From a virus, in the IMG/VR virus record IMGVR_UViG_3300045747_000694, positions 42,165 through 106,164 of that record: a DNA stretch of 64,000 nucleotides. One strand, written 5' to 3'. Below, in pieces: positions 12,890 to 21,977 of the stretch. Position numbers and translations under genes: made by a program. The notes beneath the pieces are model-generated. The model did no database searches and was not told where the DNA came from. It saw only the letters and a list, made by a program, of their open reading frames with translations. The number at the start of each line of letters is the position of its first letter. Position 1 is the stretch's first letter.

Positions 12890-12898
12890 CCTTATCCC
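12890..12898 (-). promoter_or_regulatory. variant GGGATAAGG box upstream of the 12837 start
   Basis: Member of the GGCATAAGG box family, ~53 nt upstream of the ATG. Confidence 0.35.
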
Positions 12899-12931
12899 TC
12901 GCTATGAGAGCTTTTGGTTGAGGGCTAAAGA

Positions 12932-12958
12932 GAGAGTCCTGAGACTTCCAGGACTCTC
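12932..12958 (-). terminator. stem-loop with flanking GAGGGCTAAAGAG box
   Basis: GAGAGTCCTG-agacttc-CAGGACTCTC. The loop is identical to that of the 14932 hairpin. Confidence 0.65.
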
Positions 12959-12993
12959 CCCGACGGTTGCATCGCTGCGCGGGAGGAGCCGCG

Positions 12994-13482
12994 CTACGCC
13001 TGCGCCATCTTCTGTGTGGCCTTGCCTGCCTCGAGGCTGAACTCGAGGCGCGCGGCCGCTCTCTTCACGTTCTCGACCAGCTCCCACGGCTGCACGCCCA
13101 GCTCGATGATCTCGTCGAGCGTGACGATGCGGTACGCGTCCAGCCCCAGCGCCGCTAGGATCCCTTCGGGGATGTGCACGTTGGGCCGCACGGTGAAGCC
13201 GAGAGCCATCTCACCGTTGTTGACGGGTCCCCACACGATGCGGCCGTAGGTGATGGACTCCGCACCGTCGATCACGCGCAGGCCGGCGCTGGAGAGCGGG
13301 TAGCGGAAGAGCTCCACCACGCCGCTGTTCGTCAGCTTCGCCAGCAGGTCCAGCAGAGGCTGGAGACCGCGACGCGCCACGCGAGGCAGGGCTTCTCGGT
13401 ACGTGCCCAAGAAGTGATCGCACTCCTTCTCGATGCTCTCCGCATCCTTCTTCACGTCGTCGATCTTGGTCACAGGATCCAC
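12994..13482 (-). CDS. hypothetical protein (162 aa)
   Basis: GTG at 13482 with AGGAAGG RBS. GC3 collapses upstream of it in this frame, so the 200-aa track version is rejected. Confidence 0.65.
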   Translation of the reverse strand: MDPVTKIDDVKKDAESIEKECDHFLGTYREALPRVARRGLQPLLDLLAKLTNSGVVELFRYPLSSAGLRVIDGAESITYGRIVWGPVNNGEMALGFTVRPNVHIPEGILAALGLDAYRIVTLDEIIELGVQPWELVENVKRAAARLEFSLEAGKATQKMAQA

Positions 13483-13631
13483 CTTCCTGTCTTCGGGTTG
13501 ATCATCAGAGGCGTGTCCTTTCGGCTCCTCGTGAGGGCCTGCCCCTTCATGTTTCGCTTCGCGGCGTTGGAACGGAAGAGAGCGCGAATGACCCACACCA
13601 ACGCCATCCCCAACAGCACGTACCCCGTCAT
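13470..13631 (-). CDS. small membrane protein (53 aa)
   Basis: GGAGG RBS + ATG. MTGYVLLGMALVWVIRALF... High GC3. Stop overlaps the downstream GTG start. Confidence 0.6.
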   Translation of the reverse strand: MTGYVLLGMALVWVIRALFRSNAAKRNMKGQALTRSRKDTPLMINPKTGRWIL

Positions 13632-13665
13632 CCGTACCTCCTGGCTAAGGTTGTCTCTGCTCTCT

Positions 13666-13674
13666 CCTTATGCC
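13666..13674 (-). promoter_or_regulatory. GGCATAAGG box
   Basis: ~35 nt upstream of the 13631 start. Confidence 0.4.
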
Positions 13675-13989
13675 TCCACGCACCCACCTTTGGAAGCCAC
13701 TCGCACAGTTGGTACGATGAAAGATGACTCCCAAACGTGCACGGTGCACGGTGTTTGCGCGACCCCATGGGTACCCCGTCAAGCAACGAATGTACAGGGC
13801 TGTCCTGCAAGTCCGGGCAATCAGGAAGAGTATGGAGATGAGCCGCCTCCCGGCGGCTACTCGAAGAGTCCGTTCGCGTTCTCATCCAGGAAGCGAGGTG
13901 TGACTTACACCTCTCCCAGATGGGAACTGAGCGGACTCTAGAGCTTGTCACCGTCAGTGCTACGAGCAGCGAAACTTCACTGCCATACT

Positions 13990-13997
13990 CTTATGCC
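13990..13997 (-). promoter_or_regulatory. GGCATAAG box with no protein gene directly downstream
   Basis: Faces ~320 nt of non-coding sequence (13675-13989). Confidence 0.3.
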
Positions 13998-14080
13998 CAA
14001 AGTGCGGCCGTACTTGCACCCACACCGACGCCACGATTCATGCTCCCCACTGAAGCTGCGGTGGAGTAGCGTCGAGGTAC

Positions 14081-14926
14081 GTGAGCACTTACTACGCCCT
14101 CCCAGGAACGACCAAGCGCGTTTCGAACTACGCTCTGCTCTTCCTGTGCTTGTTGATGACTGCGCTCTTCGGGGCCGTTGACCGAATGCTTGATGTCGCC
14201 TTCCACTACAACTTCACACCCACGCCGCTCTACCTGATCCCCATCTCGATTGCGGCGTGGTTCGGTGGTCTTCCTCTCGGCCTACTCGTTTCGGTGCCAG
14301 CTCTGTTGCTCGAGTCTTGGCTCAGTCTCAAGTCGATCAAGATCCACCATCCCAACTCAGCCATCATCACCGAGGCTCTCTCGCTTCTCATCGCTGCGGA
14401 GATGCTTGGAGCGGTGTTGATCGTTTCGAGGCTGCGGAGCTACGTTCGCAAGTACCATCACTTCGCTTCGGTGGACGAGCTCACCGAATGCCTCAATGCC
14501 AGGGCCTTCAGGCACGAGTGCGAGATCGCCATCGAGCGCCTGAAGCGCTCGAAGGACGCCCACCTCTCGGTCATGTACATCGACGTGGACGACTTCAAGA
14601 TCGTGAACGACGAGAAGGGCCACAAGCATGGGGATGCGGCACTCAAGACGCTTGGGGAAGCGCTGCGTACCTCGGTGCGCTTGGTGGATGTGGTTGGTAG
14701 AGTGGGAGGAGATGAGTTCGCCGTTCTCCTCCCTGATGCCGAAGAGGCCGACCTCCCACTCATCATCGGTCGCATCAAGGCTGCACTCGTGCAGCTGGAG
14801 TTCCCCACCACCATCAGCATCGGCTACGTGACCTACCCGCCCGGTGTTCCGAAAGACCTCGACGCAGTCTTCCACTTGGCCGACCAGCGCATGTACGCGG
14901 CCAAGAAGGCACGCAAGCAGAGGTAA
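14081..14926 (+). CDS. membrane-anchored diguanylate cyclase (GGDEF domain with I-site)
   Basis: Hydrophobic N-terminal half consistent with several TM helices. IDVDDFKIVNDEKGHKHGD. RLVD-VVGRV-GGDEF (RxxD five residues before GGDEF). ADQRMYAAKK. Confidence 0.85.
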   Translation: MSTYYALPGTTKRVSNYALLFLCLLMTALFGAVDRMLDVAFHYNFTPTPLYLIPISIAAWFGGLPLGLLVSVPALLLESWLSLKSIKIHHPNSAIITEALSLLIAAEMLGAVLIVSRLRSYVRKYHHFASVDELTECLNARAFRHECEIAIERLKRSKDAHLSVMYIDVDDFKIVNDEKGHKHGDAALKTLGEALRTSVRLVDVVGRVGGDEFAVLLPDAEEADLPLIIGRIKAALVQLEFPTTISIGYVTYPPGVPKDLDAVFHLADQRMYAAKKARKQR

Positions 14927-14931
14927 GAAGA

Positions 14932-14952
14932 AGGGCCCAGACTTCGGGCCCT
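14932..14952. terminator. bidirectional stem-loop
   Basis: AGGGCCC-agacttc-GGGCCCT, preceded by AGAGGTAAGAAG. Confidence 0.65.
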
Positions 14953-20588: not shown

Positions 20589-20825
20589 ATGCGACTCGAC
20601 ATGCACGTCTTCATGACCGACGATTCGACATGGTGTGCCCGGGTTGGGTCTGGGCCTACCATCTTCGCCAAGACCCCGGAGCAGGCCCAGGCGGCTGCCC
20701 TGATGGCGTACCGGGCCAGGGCGCTCTACCTCTCGCTCCTGGGGCGGGAGCCCTCGGACCGGGAGCTGCGCCGGCTGCGCAGGCCGGTAGATGCCCTGGA
20801 CCTGCGGGTGGTCTGGACGCAGTAG
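20589..20825 (+). CDS. hypothetical protein (78 aa)
   Basis: Track ORF with high GC3. Confidence 0.65.
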   Translation: MRLDMHVFMTDDSTWCARVGSGPTIFAKTPEQAQAAALMAYRARALYLSLLGREPSDRELRRLRRPVDALDLRVVWTQ

Positions 20826-20850
20826 CTGGTCCCCGGGTAGTCTCCGGGGC

Positions 20851-21204
20851 ATGACCAGCCAAGACGAAGAAGCACTCCCAGGCGGCCTTGTGGCCGTGCC
20901 GGACGACCTCACGGTGGAGATGCCGGGGGAAGGCCTGCCGGTCATCACCTGGTGGGAGACAGGGCCCGCCGAGAGGCTGCTCGCAGACCAGCTGCGCCAG
21001 CTGGAGGACGCGCGGCTCCTCGAGCTGGTGACCAAGACCGCCCTGCCTCAGGGCTGGTATGCCGGCACCATCACAGGCGGGGTGCAGGTGGCCCCTCTCG
21101 TCAGCTTCACTTGCGCCCAAGACGTGAGCCCGGTCTTCGACTTGGGGTCCCCTCGTCAGCACTTCGTGGCGGGGAAGACCGTCTTGAAGGGTAAGAAGAA
21201 GTAG
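20851..21204 (+). CDS. hypothetical protein (117 aa)
   Basis: ATG at 20851, in frame within track ORF 20791..21204. Confidence 0.65.
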   Translation: MTSQDEEALPGGLVAVPDDLTVEMPGEGLPVITWWETGPAERLLADQLRQLEDARLLELVTKTALPQGWYAGTITGGVQVAPLVSFTCAQDVSPVFDLGSPRQHFVAGKTVLKGKKK

Positions 21205-21265
21205 AGCCTCTTCGGCGCTCCCCACCTACACCTACAGATTCTGAGCGCGTGGGAGGGCTAAGAAG

Positions 21266-21287
21266 CGGGGCCCGTACAGGCGCCCCA
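21266..21287. terminator. bidirectional stem-loop with GGGAGGGCTAAGAAG box
   Basis: CGGGGCCCGTACAGGCGCCCC. Confidence 0.6.
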
Positions 21288-21310
21288 CCTCCCTGTCCCC
21301 TCCGCGGGGA

Positions 21311-21547
21311 CTACGCCTCCGGCAGCTCGTCGTAGACGACCAGGCTCCCGTTGGTGAAGACGATGCGGAAGCCCTCGGCCTCGTACTTCTCCCAGGCCTT
21401 GTAGAAGGAGGGCGCGCGGTCGGTCAGGACCTCGAGCTTCTTCACGTCGCCCAGCTGGGTGGCGCGGTCCCAGGCCTTCTCCATCGCCTTGCCCCGCCGC
21501 GCCAGGCTGAGGAACTTCGCCTTCCGGACTTCTCGGGTGGCGCTCAC
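21311..21547 (-). CDS. hypothetical protein (78 aa)
   Basis: Track ORF, GTG start. Confidence 0.7.
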   Translation of the reverse strand: MSATREVRKAKFLSLARRGKAMEKAWDRATQLGDVKKLEVLTDRAPSFYKAWEKYEAEGFRIVFTNGSLVVYDELPEA

Positions 21548-21550
21548 CCC

Positions 21551-21844
21551 TTACGCCTCGGCCTGCTGGGCGCGCTTCTCCTTGCGGGTCTTCATGCCCA
21601 GGGACTTCTTGATGCCGGCCTCAAGGCCCTCGACCGCCTTCTCGTACTTCGACGCGGCCTCGGTGAGGTGGCCGAAGGTCTCCATCAGCTTCTCCTCGCC
21701 GGCGGCCTTCATGAACTCCGCGCGGGCGGCGGCCACGGCCTTGGAGAGGACCGGGGTCTGGTTGGTGATCGTGGTGGCCAGCGCCACGGTGACGTCGGTG
21801 GTGATGACGGTGATGGACTTCAGGATGATGATGAGCTGGTTCAT
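21551..21844 (-). CDS. hypothetical helical protein (97 aa)
   Basis: ATG at 21844 (MNQLII) with GGAGG RBS. Confidence 0.65.
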   Translation of the reverse strand: MNQLIIILKSITVITTDVTVALATTITNQTPVLSKAVAAARAEFMKAAGEEKLMETFGHLTEAASKYEKAVEGLEAGIKKSLGMKTRKEKRAQQAEA

Positions 21845-21903
21845 ACAGCCTCCATGGCCATTGGCCTGGGTGAGCTCAAGAGCGGAACTGCTCTCGAACA
21901 AAG

Positions 21904-21912
21904 CCTTCTCCC
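21904..21912 (-). promoter_or_regulatory. variant GGGAGAAGG box
   Basis: ~60 nt upstream of the 21844 start. Leader homologous to the 19778 copy. Confidence 0.35.
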
Positions 21913-21955
21913 ACAGGGATGCCAGGAATTGCTTCTCTCCCAGGGCTAAGCGAAG

Positions 21956-21977
21956 AGGGGCCTGTACGAGCGCCCCT
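21956..21977 (-). terminator. stem-loop with CAGGGCTAAGCGAAG box
   Basis: AGGGGCCTGTACGAGCGCCCCT. Confidence 0.6.

Follow-up and report, generated by a model that had tools for sequence, protein, structure and literature searches.

In T4-type phages, promoter-early stem-loops (PeSLs) are defined as a stem-loop, a promoter and a Shine-Dalgarno sequence with start codon, arranged in that order (PMC4122927). The element described here, which recurs in a 64,000-nt stretch (the window) of a roughly 200-kb virus genome, has the same parts in the same order; like T4 PeSLs, its copies lie in a mosaic region and bound cassettes gained or lost between relatives. The PeSL analogy drawn in a first-pass annotation of this DNA holds both for architecture and for mosaic cassette behaviour, in a phage family that is unrelated to T4 and consists of uncultured phages of about 130–210 kb. 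From sequence comparisons, we consider it likely that the repeated element is a terminator plus a phage-family-specific two-part promoter, that its reader is not a housekeeping factor, and that the units are gained and lost as cassettes.

The two-part motif and its sites

The word GGCATAAG occurs 10 times on the two strands of the window, against 0.54 expected, and none of 100 shuffles reached 10. Nine copies are on the - strand, in agreement with the nine CATAAG-type copies annotated earlier, whose positions were given as the + strand start of the 9-mer or 8-mer. Eight of them lie between genes, and the ninth (36668–36675) overlaps the stop codon of gene 36669–37112(-) and is followed by a 272-nt gap. 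The two variants annotated at 12890 and 21904 are also present, namely GGGATAAG at 12891–12898 and GGGAGAAG at 21905–21912. Among k-mers upstream of - strand genes, GGCATAAG-type words show the highest enrichment; upstream of + strand genes, no k-mer is comparably enriched.

Counting from the first G, C at -19 and A at -17 are invariant in all nine exact - strand copies (p = 3e-5 and 3e-7, respectively) and recur in three of three variants, making 12/12 sites; position -18 is A in 9/12, so that the block is mostly CAA. The block sits exactly 17 nt upstream of CATAAG, contrary to the earlier claims that no consistent -35 hexamer lies at this distance and that the promoter is of a -10-only type. 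Because of this invariant C.A at fixed spacing, the putative promoter motif is two-part, nnCAAn-N15-GG(C/G)A(T/G)AAG. The sole + strand copy of GGCATAAG (16836) looks like a chance match, since it is intragenic and has no CAA block. Two bases ahead of the -10 hexamer, a G is reminiscent of an extended -10.

A matrix scan returned 14 two-part sites with a clear score gap (accepted sites at least 15.8, the remainder at most 12.8). All are on the - strand and head non-structural transcription units, which would be of the early/middle type, and the Shine-Dalgarno sequence and start codon usually follow within 15–80 nt. The first-pass annotation had missed 22197, 37180 and 62159, as well as a decayed site at 19819.

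Conservation follows the two blocks closely. Across seven orthologous promoter pairs, in a relative 86–92% identical, the CAA core and 8-mer show 0/77 substitutions, as opposed to 35/105 in the spacers (p = 3e-10) and 170/469 at the remaining positions (Fisher p = 5e-14). The motif is also found in L003, L013, L087 and L177, at non-orthologous sites in L017, and four times within 2.9 kb of L168, each time with a hairpin or box before it. The relatives that retain it span 53 to 64% G+C and probably differ in their hosts.

Taking the individual - strand sites in order, P12898 (12891–12919; ACCAAA-N15-GGGATAAG) lies 53 nt before the start of gene 12190–12837, which has the tmRNA gene downstream of it; the L017 ortholog (8716) keeps both blocks while 5/15 spacer bases differ. 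P13674 (13667–13695; TCCAAA-N15-GGCATAAG), 35 nt upstream of gene 13470–13631, is kept in L017 (9482) and L201. P13997 (13990–14018; TGCAAG-N15-GGCATAAG) probably drives a structured RNA at 13675–13989, since the 358 nt downstream hold no ORF; this site, 36675 and 62159 are those with no start codon within 270 nt downstream. P15787 (15780–15808; CGCAAT-N15-GGCATAAG) is 52 nt upstream of a lipoprotein-like gene (14975–15727). P17083 (17076–17104; TCCGAA-N15-GGCATAAG), 15 nt upstream of gene 16554–17060, is kept in L201 (2651), and P18210 (18203–18231; CACCAT-N15-GGCATAAG), 78 nt upstream of gene 17660–18124, in L202 (3617). P19786 (19779–19807; GGCAAG-N15-GGCATAAG) precedes gene 19440–19730 by 48 nt; the decayed tandem promoter 19819 (19812–19840; GGCATACG) is by alignment the ortholog of L017 P14446.

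P21912 (21905–21933; AGCAAT-N15-GGGAGAAG) is 60 nt upstream of gene 21551–21844, and in L017 (16555) its two blocks are retained between flanks that are unrelated on both sides. P22197 (22190–22218; GGCAAA-N15-GGGAGAAG), found by the matrix scan, sits within the 3' end of gene 22155–23159, 46 nt upstream of gene 21988–22143, with an ortholog in L017 at 17505. P37180 (37173–37201; GTCAAC-N15-GGCAGAAG) heads a long - strand block, 60 nt upstream of gene 36669–37112, whose stop codon is overlapped by P36675 (36668–36696; AGCGAA-N15-GGCATAAG). The 272-nt untranslated stretch after P36675 is highly conserved, and L013 has a candidate ortholog at equal distance from an MVP-like gene. P58658 (58651–58679; GTCAAG-N15-GGCATAAG) lies 50 nt upstream of a ligase-like gene (57206–58600); in L001 the promoter is nearly identical and the leader has diverged. 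The promoter-like P62159 (62152–62180; GGCAAA-N15-GGCAGAAG), the weakest accepted site (score 15.8), falls in the 334-nt leader of a class II ribonucleotide reductase gene. P62823 (62816–62844; GGCAAC-N15-GGCATAAG) is followed about 59 nt downstream by an ATG (62756) with a GGAGG Shine-Dalgarno sequence.

Hairpins and boxes at gene ends

The box CTTA[CG][CG][CT]CT[CG] has nine - strand copies and one + strand copy where 0.44 would be expected, and the combination of a hairpin with TTA(C/G)C(C/T)CT occurs 9–11 times against about 0.5. Nine entries in the earlier list of such pairs stand, with a GC-rich hairpin directly before the box (11054, 12928, 14926, 15821, 17111, 18239, 21261, 21949 and 48631). 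The hairpins at 62076 and 47080 are weak, the latter as suspected in the first-pass annotation, which had listed it (47073) as merely possible. Hairpins end 0–3 nt ahead of the box TTA, and 5/11 sites fold within the lowest 1% of 42-nt controls. The similarities between copies pointed out before are all present: the loop gaagtct (- sense) at 12932 and 14932, the hairpin GGGGCGC-N6-RGGCCCC at 15826, 21266 and 21956, and a common leader sequence at 19778 and 21904.

The CTTCTTACCTCTC-type box is not part of the putative promoter. The distance from its TTA to the C of CAA varies from 9 to 18 nt, and since convergent gene ends that lack a promoter downstream have it behind their hairpins as well (14926, 48631, 11054, 21261), the box is best placed in the predicted terminator module. 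This module would be an intrinsic-type terminator of - strand transcripts, in which the 3' side of a GC-rich RNA hairpin enters a pyrimidine/U-rich tail, (C)TTCTTA(C/G)C(C/T)CT(C). The U-tract is poor, with 3–4 U among the first 8 nt past the stem, and of the boxed terminators a generic scan recognises only the element at 11063–11094. The terminator and promoter modules would be separable, although often adjoining.

The predicted terminators, again on the - strand, differ in their hairpins. The one at 12920–12961 has a 14-bp hairpin followed by TTAGCCCTC (-22.9 kcal/mol, 0.2 percentile of 42-nt controls) and a stem with compensatory changes relative to L017. The terminator at 14918–14957, which lies where the GGDEF gene converges, combines a hairpin with TTACCTCTG; 15813–15846 (hairpin GGGGCGCTCTCACAGGCCCC and TTACCTCTC) has as its orthologs the terminators found at the GGDEF junction in L017, L201 and L202. 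The stem at 17103–17141, also followed by TTACCTCTC, covaries in L201 and L202, and L202 has an element identical to 18231–18256 (GGGGAG-cattc-CTCCCC and TTACGTCTC). The remaining ones are 21253–21291, a convergent junction with hairpin GGGGCGCCTGTACGGGCCCC, TTAGCCCTC and no promoter downstream; 21941–21982 (GGGGCGCTCGTACAGGCCCC and TTAGCCCTG); the convergent terminator 11046–11094, a strong hairpin with CTTCTTCTTTC and TTAGCCTTC; and the convergent terminator 48623–48662, a 12-bp hairpin with TTACCTCTC (-29.9 kcal/mol) that is kept in L001.

Gain and loss of cassettes at the GGDEF junction

The GGDEF junction was compared among five genomes (the window, L017, L201, L202 and L020). The genes compared lie downstream of the GGDEF gene. 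With these genes labelled A (18262–18483), X1 and X2 (17660–18124 and 17177–17584), Y1 and Y2 (16554–17060 and 16165–16554), B (15852–16178) and Z (14975–15727), and with T for terminator and P for promoter, the order in the window is A T P X1 X2 T P Y1 Y2 B T P Z T, then GGDEF. Read in the same sense up to GGDEF, L201 has X2 T P Y1 Y2 B T, L202 has A T P X1 X2 T B T, and L017 has A B T. Terminator-promoter-gene units are thus gained or lost in a nested manner among the five genomes. An 886-bp cassette (14927–15812, - strand), comprising P15787, gene 14975–15727 and a hairpin with box, is specific to the window and missing at this junction in L017, L201, L202 and L020. On either side it is bordered by a direct repeat of the box, 12 bp long (CTTCTTACCTCT), the right-hand copy lying in terminator 14918–14957 and the left-hand copy in 15813–15846. 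The [P Y1 Y2] unit starts directly after the box too, and homology between the window and L017 stops directly after the -10 box at 19819/14446. From these few events in five genomes, a role of the repeats in recombination is suggested, the direct repeats at cassette ends being only 8–12 bp. Because each small operon has its own promoter and terminator, the units may be self-contained cassettes, and the short repeated terminator-box-promoter junctions would be crossover points for their gain, loss and exchange, as has been proposed for T4 PeSLs.

Candidate readers and rival explanations

The phage tmRNA tag (ANEPM...) and tmRNA 5' end match Myxococcota tmRNAs, and the host is likely a member of the Myxococcota, Anaeromyxobacter-like, with the tmRNA as the one basis of this assignment. 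Upstream of ssrA in this clade, TTGAC-N16-19-T[AT]nnnT is found in 21/27 regions and the phage motif in 0/27; the housekeeping promoters of the candidate clade are of the canonical type, TTGAC-N17-TAnnnT. Within the window, TTGAC-N17-19-TAnnnT occurs nowhere, and no intergenic region has TTGACA-N16-18-TATAAT at a match of at least 9/12. Since the host-clade pattern is absent, the probable reader of the motif is an alternative specificity factor, or one encoded by the phage, rather than the host housekeeping sigma. Primary sigma factors need T as the last base of the -10 hexamer, where the motif has G, and the CAA block matched none of the -35 consensuses tested. We envisage an RNA polymerase whose sigma-type specificity subunit would read both the -35-position block and, at the classical spacing of 17 nt, the A/T-rich -10-position block (CATAAG after GG); the subunit could be an alternative host sigma or a phage-encoded one, or the polymerase could be phage-modified. 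No sigma-like or RNA polymerase gene was detected by Pfam in the window, which is part of the genome, or in about 150 kb of related loci by local phmmer. The earlier proposal, in which a terminator is joined to a non-canonical promoter specific to the phage, is, at the level of sequence, supported.

That the sites are instead ordinary early promoters for an unmodified host housekeeping sigma with an unusual consensus is quite unlikely. The 17-nt spacing, the A at -10 position 2 and the extended -10-like G would suit it, and the host is known by inference only; yet the clade's ssrA promoters are not of this kind, the CAA block and terminal G differ at the most conserved positions of the clade consensus, and the motif persists across the G+C range of relatives probably living in different hosts. 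Nor do we favour asymmetric operators for a phage DNA-binding regulator, of the sort known from cluster A mycobacteriophages as oriented "stoperators". In favour are the number of the sites, their orientation, their intergenic position and their single sequence type, together with a helix-turn-helix protein encoded at 37545–37709, but two blocks around a freely varying 15-nt spacer do not form one contiguous site; moreover, the sites are confined to places where a transcription unit begins, immediately behind terminators and 15–80 nt ahead of start codons, and these units have no other promoter-like motif, which leaves operators very improbable. Promoters for a sigma-free polymerase, either a phage single-subunit (T7/N4-type) or a non-canonical multisubunit one, appear more improbable still. 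The phage is large, its window has no host-type promoters, and many sites have a hairpin upstream, which in the N4-type case would be part of the promoter. Promoters of single-subunit polymerases are contiguous blocks of about 17–23 bp, however, whereas only 3 + 8 bases, 15 nt apart, are conserved here; the hairpins differ in sequence, vary by 9 nt in their distance to the promoter and are absent altogether at 7/14 sites, and no polymerase gene is seen in the window.

A separate function for the box TTA(C/G)C(C/T)CT is also unlikely, either as a site-specific crossover core, with hairpin and core serving cassette integration as in integron attC, or as a boxA-like NusB/NusE site, a CTCTTTA-like sequence that follows a hairpin in the manner of rrn leaders. 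Conservation of the box does exceed the needs of a U-tract; L013 retains it behind a canonical T6 tract, and it persists in at least three family lineages. It also resembles lambda boxA (CGCTCTTA); two independent indels begin exactly after it, one insertion being flanked by its direct repeat. Against this, the window yielded neither an integrase nor a recombinase, and, the repeat being short, simple microhomology would account for the junctions. The box lies upstream of the adjacent promoter and would be transcribed by read-through only, an odd position for an antitermination site. Its TTA, moreover, is in some convergent junctions the reverse complement of the + strand stop codon or lies just beyond it, adding an unrelated constraint. 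A terminator joined to a two-part promoter remains our preferred reading, and the related large phages that gain and lose these cassettes probably infect myxobacteria.

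A putative two-part promoter motif and the regions it precedes

The 8-mer GGCATAAG occurs ten times in the window against 0.54 expected. Nine copies are on the - strand, and eight of these nine are intergenic, in a window of which only ~9% is intergenic DNA; the ninth overlaps a stop codon ahead of a 272-nt gap. The sole + strand copy (16836) lies inside a gene and is without a CAA block. The repeats noticed in the first-pass annotation are therefore real, but its reading of them as a -10-only promoter with no consistent -35 hexamer is contradicted by two invariant upstream bases. 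When the nine exact copies are aligned on the 8-mer, C stands at -19 in all nine (binomial p = 3e-5) and A at -17 in all nine (p = 3e-7), with mostly A at -18; the three variants GGGATAAG, GGGAGAAG and GGCAGAAG have the same bases at -19 and -17. Written as hexamers, the motif is nnCAAn (for example GTCAAG, GGCAAG or TGCAAG), 17 nt and CATAAG, with an invariant GG before the second hexamer.

A matrix built from the aligned sites recognizes 14 sites in the window, all on the - strand and set off by a clear score gap, including new ones such as 22197 and 62159. The most enriched k-mers upstream of - strand genes are GGCATAAG-type words, and no comparable enriched word was found upstream of + strand genes. 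By our own codon-based gene call, the - strand blocks (11.1–37.1 and 48.7–62.7 kb) carry small ORFans, nucleotide metabolism and replication-type genes; the + strand blocks (1–11.05 and 37.2–48.6 kb) carry the tail fibre, lysis and mostly unannotated genes. In the window, the motif heads non-structural transcription units, and structural genes lack it.

Comparison with the close relative separates the blocks from their surroundings. Over seven pairs of orthologous promoters, 0 of the 77 positions in the CAA core and 8-mer are substituted, as against 170 of 469 at the remaining positions (Fisher p = 5e-14) and 35 of 105 in the spacers alone (p = 3e-10). The two blocks, at fixed spacing, are under purifying selection and the spacer is free. 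At 12898, the relative has both blocks intact and five differences among the 15 spacer bases; at 58658, the promoter is nearly identical and the leader just downstream is scrambled; at 21912 and 22197, both blocks are islands of identity amid otherwise unrelated flanks. The two-part motif also occurs at non-orthologous sites of this relative (its early region is L017), in the more distant family members L003 and L013, in four copies within 2.9 kb of contig 3300034358_000044, and in contigs 3300047172_000213 and 3300025770_000008. A pattern scan of IMG/VR with GCAAG-N15-GGCATAAGG gave, among the matches listed, mostly chance hits, and picked out at least three further family contigs.

The family is known from uncultured contigs. 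No close relatives were found among 50,697 deposited phage records, megablast of the region against deposited phages gave no match, and tblastn of the ribonucleotide reductase, the AAA ATPase and the MVP-like protein against the same phages gave only distant or uncultured matches. A 198-kb IMG/VR contig (3300045971_000895) is 86–92% identical to the window in nucleotides, and several other uncultured contigs of 130–210 kb share ~35–48% protein identity. In IMG/VR, the proteins 17660–18124 and 22155–23159 found no relatives, and the radical SAM protein led to nothing but unrelated low-G+C phages; it was through GGDEF homologs that the early region of the relatives was retrieved. The genome, for which 64% G+C is given (61–68% in the window), is large and apparently lytic. 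It encodes in the window a 2026-aa collagen-repeat tail fibre, a GH108 endolysin, a class II ribonucleotide reductase, an AAA ATPase, a ligase-like protein and, at 30687–33332 (-), an 881-aa protein with major vault protein shoulder and repeat domains (Pfam PF11978, PF17795), whose sole deposited-phage relatives are in uncultured huge phages of 462–735 kb (LR756500–LR756503, 39–41% identity). A GroES-like Cpn10 protein (40645–41070, +), a small protein (42597–42818, +) with an Acb2/Tad1 hairpin domain, as in proteins that sequester the signalling nucleotides of anti-phage defence, and a response-regulator receiver domain standing alone (59300–59665, -) were also seen.

Several long gaps lie next to predicted promoters (denoted P with their position); a search of the long gaps against Rfam, at the gathering threshold or at E up to 1, matched the tmRNA alone. 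The 315 nt between P13997 and P13674 (13675–13989, -) have no ORF and fold at -143 kcal/mol (z = -6.05, none of 100 shuffles as good). This stretch is conserved in L017 and in L201, another related locus, with first-hairpin substitutions that preserve pairing, and is a candidate structured non-coding RNA without Rfam match. Downstream of P36675, the 272-nt gap 36397–36667 (-) is more conserved against the related locus L012 than the coding sequence upstream. It folds only modestly better than its shuffles (z = -2.0), has no Rfam match, and may serve as a long leader or encode a non-coding RNA. Ahead of the B12-dependent ribonucleotide reductase gene, the 334-nt leader (61847–62180, -) holds the promoter-like site 62159, a long hairpin and the weak hairpin-plus-box at 62076; it may act as an attenuator or be an unrecognized riboswitch, there being no Rfam match at E up to 1.

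Boxed hairpins and the gain and loss of cassettes

The hairpins and boxes reported earlier in the gaps between - strand genes were borne out. The box CTTA(C/G)(C/G)(C/T)CT(C/G) has nine - strand copies against 0.44 expected, and the looser form TTA(C/G)C(C/T)(C/T)T has 11, nine of them after a clear GC-rich hairpin and two, at 62076 and 47080, after weak ones; the paralogous hairpins and leaders listed at that time are all present. The hairpin ends 0–3 nt before the TTA of the box, and, set against 42-nt control windows, the folds of five of the 11 sites are within the lowest 1%. As in intrinsic terminators, a stable GC-rich hairpin shortly follows the stop codon and its structure is conserved: the stem at 12928 differs from its L017 ortholog by paired changes, and that at 17111 reads GGAGAGG/CCTCTCC in the window, GAGAGGG/CCCTCTC in L201 and GCGAAGGG/CCCTTCGC in L202, around an unchanged loop. 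The tail is only moderately U-rich, with 3–4 U in the 8 nt after the stem, and a generic terminator scan (at least 5 T in 8) recognizes, of the boxed terminators, 11063–11094 alone. We infer that the boxed hairpins are intrinsic-type terminators with a family-specific tail. In L013, a true T6 tract is followed by the box all the same, which leaves room for a second function of the box.

The box was rejected as part of the promoter, because its TTA stands at varying distances (9–18 nt) from the C of CAA and because it also follows hairpins at the convergent gene ends 14926, 48631, 11054 and 21261, where no - strand gene or promoter lies downstream. By its placement, the box belongs to the terminator, not to the promoter. 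Inspection likewise rejected it as the -35 element of a second promoter, there being no TAnnnT 16–18 nt downstream. Integron cassettes offer another comparison, since attC-type sites are imperfect hairpins with a GTTRRRY core that are served by an IntI integrase; the box reads CTTA(C/G)C instead, and Pfam found no integrase domain in the window. In IMGVR_UViG_3300025770_000008 (2540–2560 and 4530–4550), both promoter copies are preceded by a short palindrome (TTAGCCGCTAA) that includes the box, which hints that the box may be recognized as DNA in some lineages.

The 12.8–22.2 kb region, which holds nine of the 14 promoter sites, is mosaic relative to L017, and five genomes were compared by the order of units read in the - sense downstream of gene A (18262–18483). 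In the window, A is followed by a terminator and a promoter, X1 and X2 (17660–18124, 17177–17584), a terminator and a promoter, Y1, Y2 and B (16554–17060, 16165–16554, 15852–16178), a terminator and a promoter, Z (14975–15727) and a last terminator, then the GGDEF gene. L201 runs from X2 through terminator, promoter, Y1, Y2, B and terminator to GGDEF; L202 has A, terminator, promoter, X1, X2, terminator, B, terminator and GGDEF; and L017 has A, B and a terminator before GGDEF. The differences among the five genomes are whole units, as nested indels bounded by the elements.

The junctions themselves are informative. The terminator of B adjoins the GGDEF gene in L017, L201, L202 and L020; the window alone has an extra 886 bp there (14927–15812), in which P15787 and a lipoprotein-like gene are joined by a second hairpin. 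The inserted stretch begins exactly behind the box, with the 12-bp direct repeat CTTCTTACCTCT at both ends. The unit of promoter, Y1 and Y2 also begins right after the box of the terminator at 17111 (T17111), and in L202 the box of T17111 is directly followed by the ribosome-binding site of B. At 19819, a decayed copy (GGCATACG) remains of a promoter present in L017 at 14446; homology between the two genomes stops right after the -10 box at 19819/14446, and 33 nt beyond the decayed copy stands a second, intact promoter with different genes. The 858-nt gap around this site (19731–20588), between divergent genes and without a convincing ORF, is ~79% identical to L017 14472–15540. The GGDEF gene (14081–14926, +) encodes a membrane-anchored diguanylate cyclase on the opposite strand within the early region; five related genomes conserve it at 58–82%, and the terminator box contains its stop codon.

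Recognition of the motif and the likely host

The host was approached through the one-piece tmRNA at 11774–12142 (-), which carries the tag ANEPMFAQQLAAA and lies downstream of the gene 12190–12837. The tmRNA gene lacks its own copy of the promoter motif and is therefore probably transcribed together with that gene from P12898. The 5' 22-mer of the tmRNA has exact matches in 56 genomes, mostly Anaeromyxobacter(aceae), Myxococcales and unclassified "delta proteobacterium" MAGs, plus Gemmatimonadota. The exact tag peptide had no match in GTDB genomes; its first five residues match ANEPMALAA of Anaeromyxobacteraceae/Myxococcales MAGs, a tag present in 30 of the 46 recognized tmRNAs of the Myxococcota group. 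The 22-mer and tag matches together make a Myxococcota host likely.

The promoters of this group are of another type. Upstream of ssrA, TTGAC-N16-19-T(A/T)nnnT was found at 21 of 27 loci, typically as CTTGAC-N17-TATATT or TATGTT, and the phage motif at none of the 27; 420 kb of host-clade loci hold six plain GGCATAAG matches and no two-part GGCATAAG site. Conversely, TTGAC-N17-19-TAnnnT occurs nowhere in the window, and no gap of the window has a 9/12 match to the E. coli consensus. The earlier judgement that this is no standard sigma-70 promoter thus holds, both by the hexamers nnCAAn/CATAAG and by the lack of a canonical promoter in the window. Since host ssrA promoters are TTGAC-type and none is found in the window, the GGCATAAG class is, for a host deduced from the tmRNA, not the housekeeping type. 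A relaxed host-type pattern gave two weak matches, both on the + strand. One of them, TTGACG, 18 nt and TTCCGT at 37197–37226, is the sole such match directly upstream of a gene (37232), in the divergent gap opposite P37180; the operon of this gene includes a helix-turn-helix protein (37545–37709), and the site, weak as the match is, could be an entry point for the host polymerase.

What, then, might read the motif? Its geometry, with two blocks set 17 nt apart and the downstream one A/T-rich although the genome is GC-rich, is typical of sigma-family recognition and unlike the contiguous promoters of single-subunit polymerases. Most likely, the motif would be read by a sigma-type factor, either alternative or encoded by the phage, or by a host polymerase that the phage has modified. 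Pfam found no sigma or RNA polymerase gene in the window, nor did a local phmmer search in ~150 kb of related loci, the sequence within reach being less than half of the genome. Sigma-54 was rejected by inspection, as GG-N10-GC is not present. Stoperators of cluster A mycobacteriophages are contiguous 13-bp asymmetric repressor sites spread between genes; the motif here is two-part with a variable spacer and confined to the heads of transcription units. Sigma-28 (FliA) promoters, TAAAG-N14-GCCGATAA, have a similar geometry, which serves as a lead only: T(A/C)AAG stands 18 nt before ATAA, which is directly preceded by a G/C-rich stretch, as in GTCAAG-N15-GGCATAAG at 58658, in L001 and in L003. 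Unlike in sigma-28 promoters, the CGA core of the -10 is missing, and TCAAG is found at a minority of sites only. Phage-encoded or redirected sigma factors also read phage-specific early or middle promoters, such as those of SPO1 gp28 and T4 MotA/AsiA, and the present motif resembles these classes in that a single consensus, other than the host's, recurs where non-structural units begin; T4 middle promoters, however, keep the sigma-70 -10 (TAnnnT), which is missing here.

Relation to PeSLs and morons

Promoter-early stem-loops (PeSLs) are composite terminator/promoter motifs of T4-like myoviruses (Arbiol et al. 2010, PMC2839356; Comeau et al. 2014, PMC4122927). They are stem-loops just upstream of early promoters, clustered in hyperplastic regions and beside indels, with decayed half-copies and with tandem copies able to loop out cassettes (PMC4122927). 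The analogy drawn in the first-pass annotation stands for the architecture and for the placement beside indels in a mosaic region, and fails for the sigma-70-like hexamers. In both, a stem-loop comes first, then a promoter whose -35 and -10 are separated by N17, then a Shine-Dalgarno sequence ahead of the start codon: the hairpin ends 28–37 nt upstream of the -10 box at 12898, 15787, 17083, 18210 and 21912, an arrangement also seen in L017, L168, L201 and L202, and 11 of the 14 promoter sites lie 15–80 nt upstream of a start codon. As with PeSLs, a hyperplastic region rich in small ORFan genes is where the elements are concentrated, and they adjoin insertions, deletions and replacements between close relatives; a decayed half-copy is found (19819), and tandem copies flank cassettes in a manner that would be compatible with the mini-circle model, the 886-bp insertion between its 12-bp direct repeats being a possible footprint of such recombination.

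The differences lie in the promoter, the box and the genome. PeSL early promoters have a TTGACA-like -35, N17 and a TATAAT-like -10, of which only the N17 spacing is seen here; the hexamers nnCAAn/CATAAG are neither sigma-70-like nor the housekeeping consensus of the inferred host. An extra conserved box of 9–12 nt between hairpin and promoter marks the junctions, and the 64% G+C genome has no recognized T4 core gene within the 64-kb window, which is under half of it. Because the sigma-70-like hexamers are lacking and the window shows no recognizable T4 core gene, we class the element as a variant of PeSLs, not a member; judging by its sequence, it would work in a PeSL-like way, and its initiation, termination and recombination activities are presumptive.

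Morons, in the concept of Hendrix and Juhala, are autonomous promoter-gene-terminator units inserted between phage genes; the classical ones belong to temperate phages, use host promoters and are expressed from the prophage. The present units are likewise single genes or small operons with their own promoter and terminator that differ between otherwise syntenic genomes, and they encode accessory functions (the lipoprotein-like gene, ORFans), the GGDEF cyclase gene adjoining an inserted unit. Unlike morons, they all have the promoter type particular to this phage family and stand in tandem, and the genome that carries them is large and apparently lytic.

The most far-reaching reading would be that uncultured phages of ~130–210 kb, probably infecting Myxococcota, have their own sigma-like factor for nnCAAn-N15-GGCATAAG, and that their accessory genes travel as circularizable cassettes of promoter, gene(s), hairpin and box that integrate by crossover at the 9–12-nt box, a PeSL- or integron-like system that arose independently outside T4-like phages. 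We regard this full scheme as rather unlikely.

The components are of familiar kinds and make a good lead in an unstudied phage family; new here are the promoter consensus, the evidence against the host housekeeping type and the conserved box that marks cassette junctions. With this promoter and terminator grammar, early and accessory gene sets can be annotated from sequence in a family of large phages without a cultured member. It appears that these phages circumvent the promoter specificity of the housekeeping type in their hosts, which are likely myxobacteria; this points to an undiscovered transcription factor. The PeSL idea, that regulatory junctions double as crossover points shuffling accessory genes, would extend beyond T4-like phages, and the one cleanly resolved insertion does have a direct repeat of the junction box at its ends.
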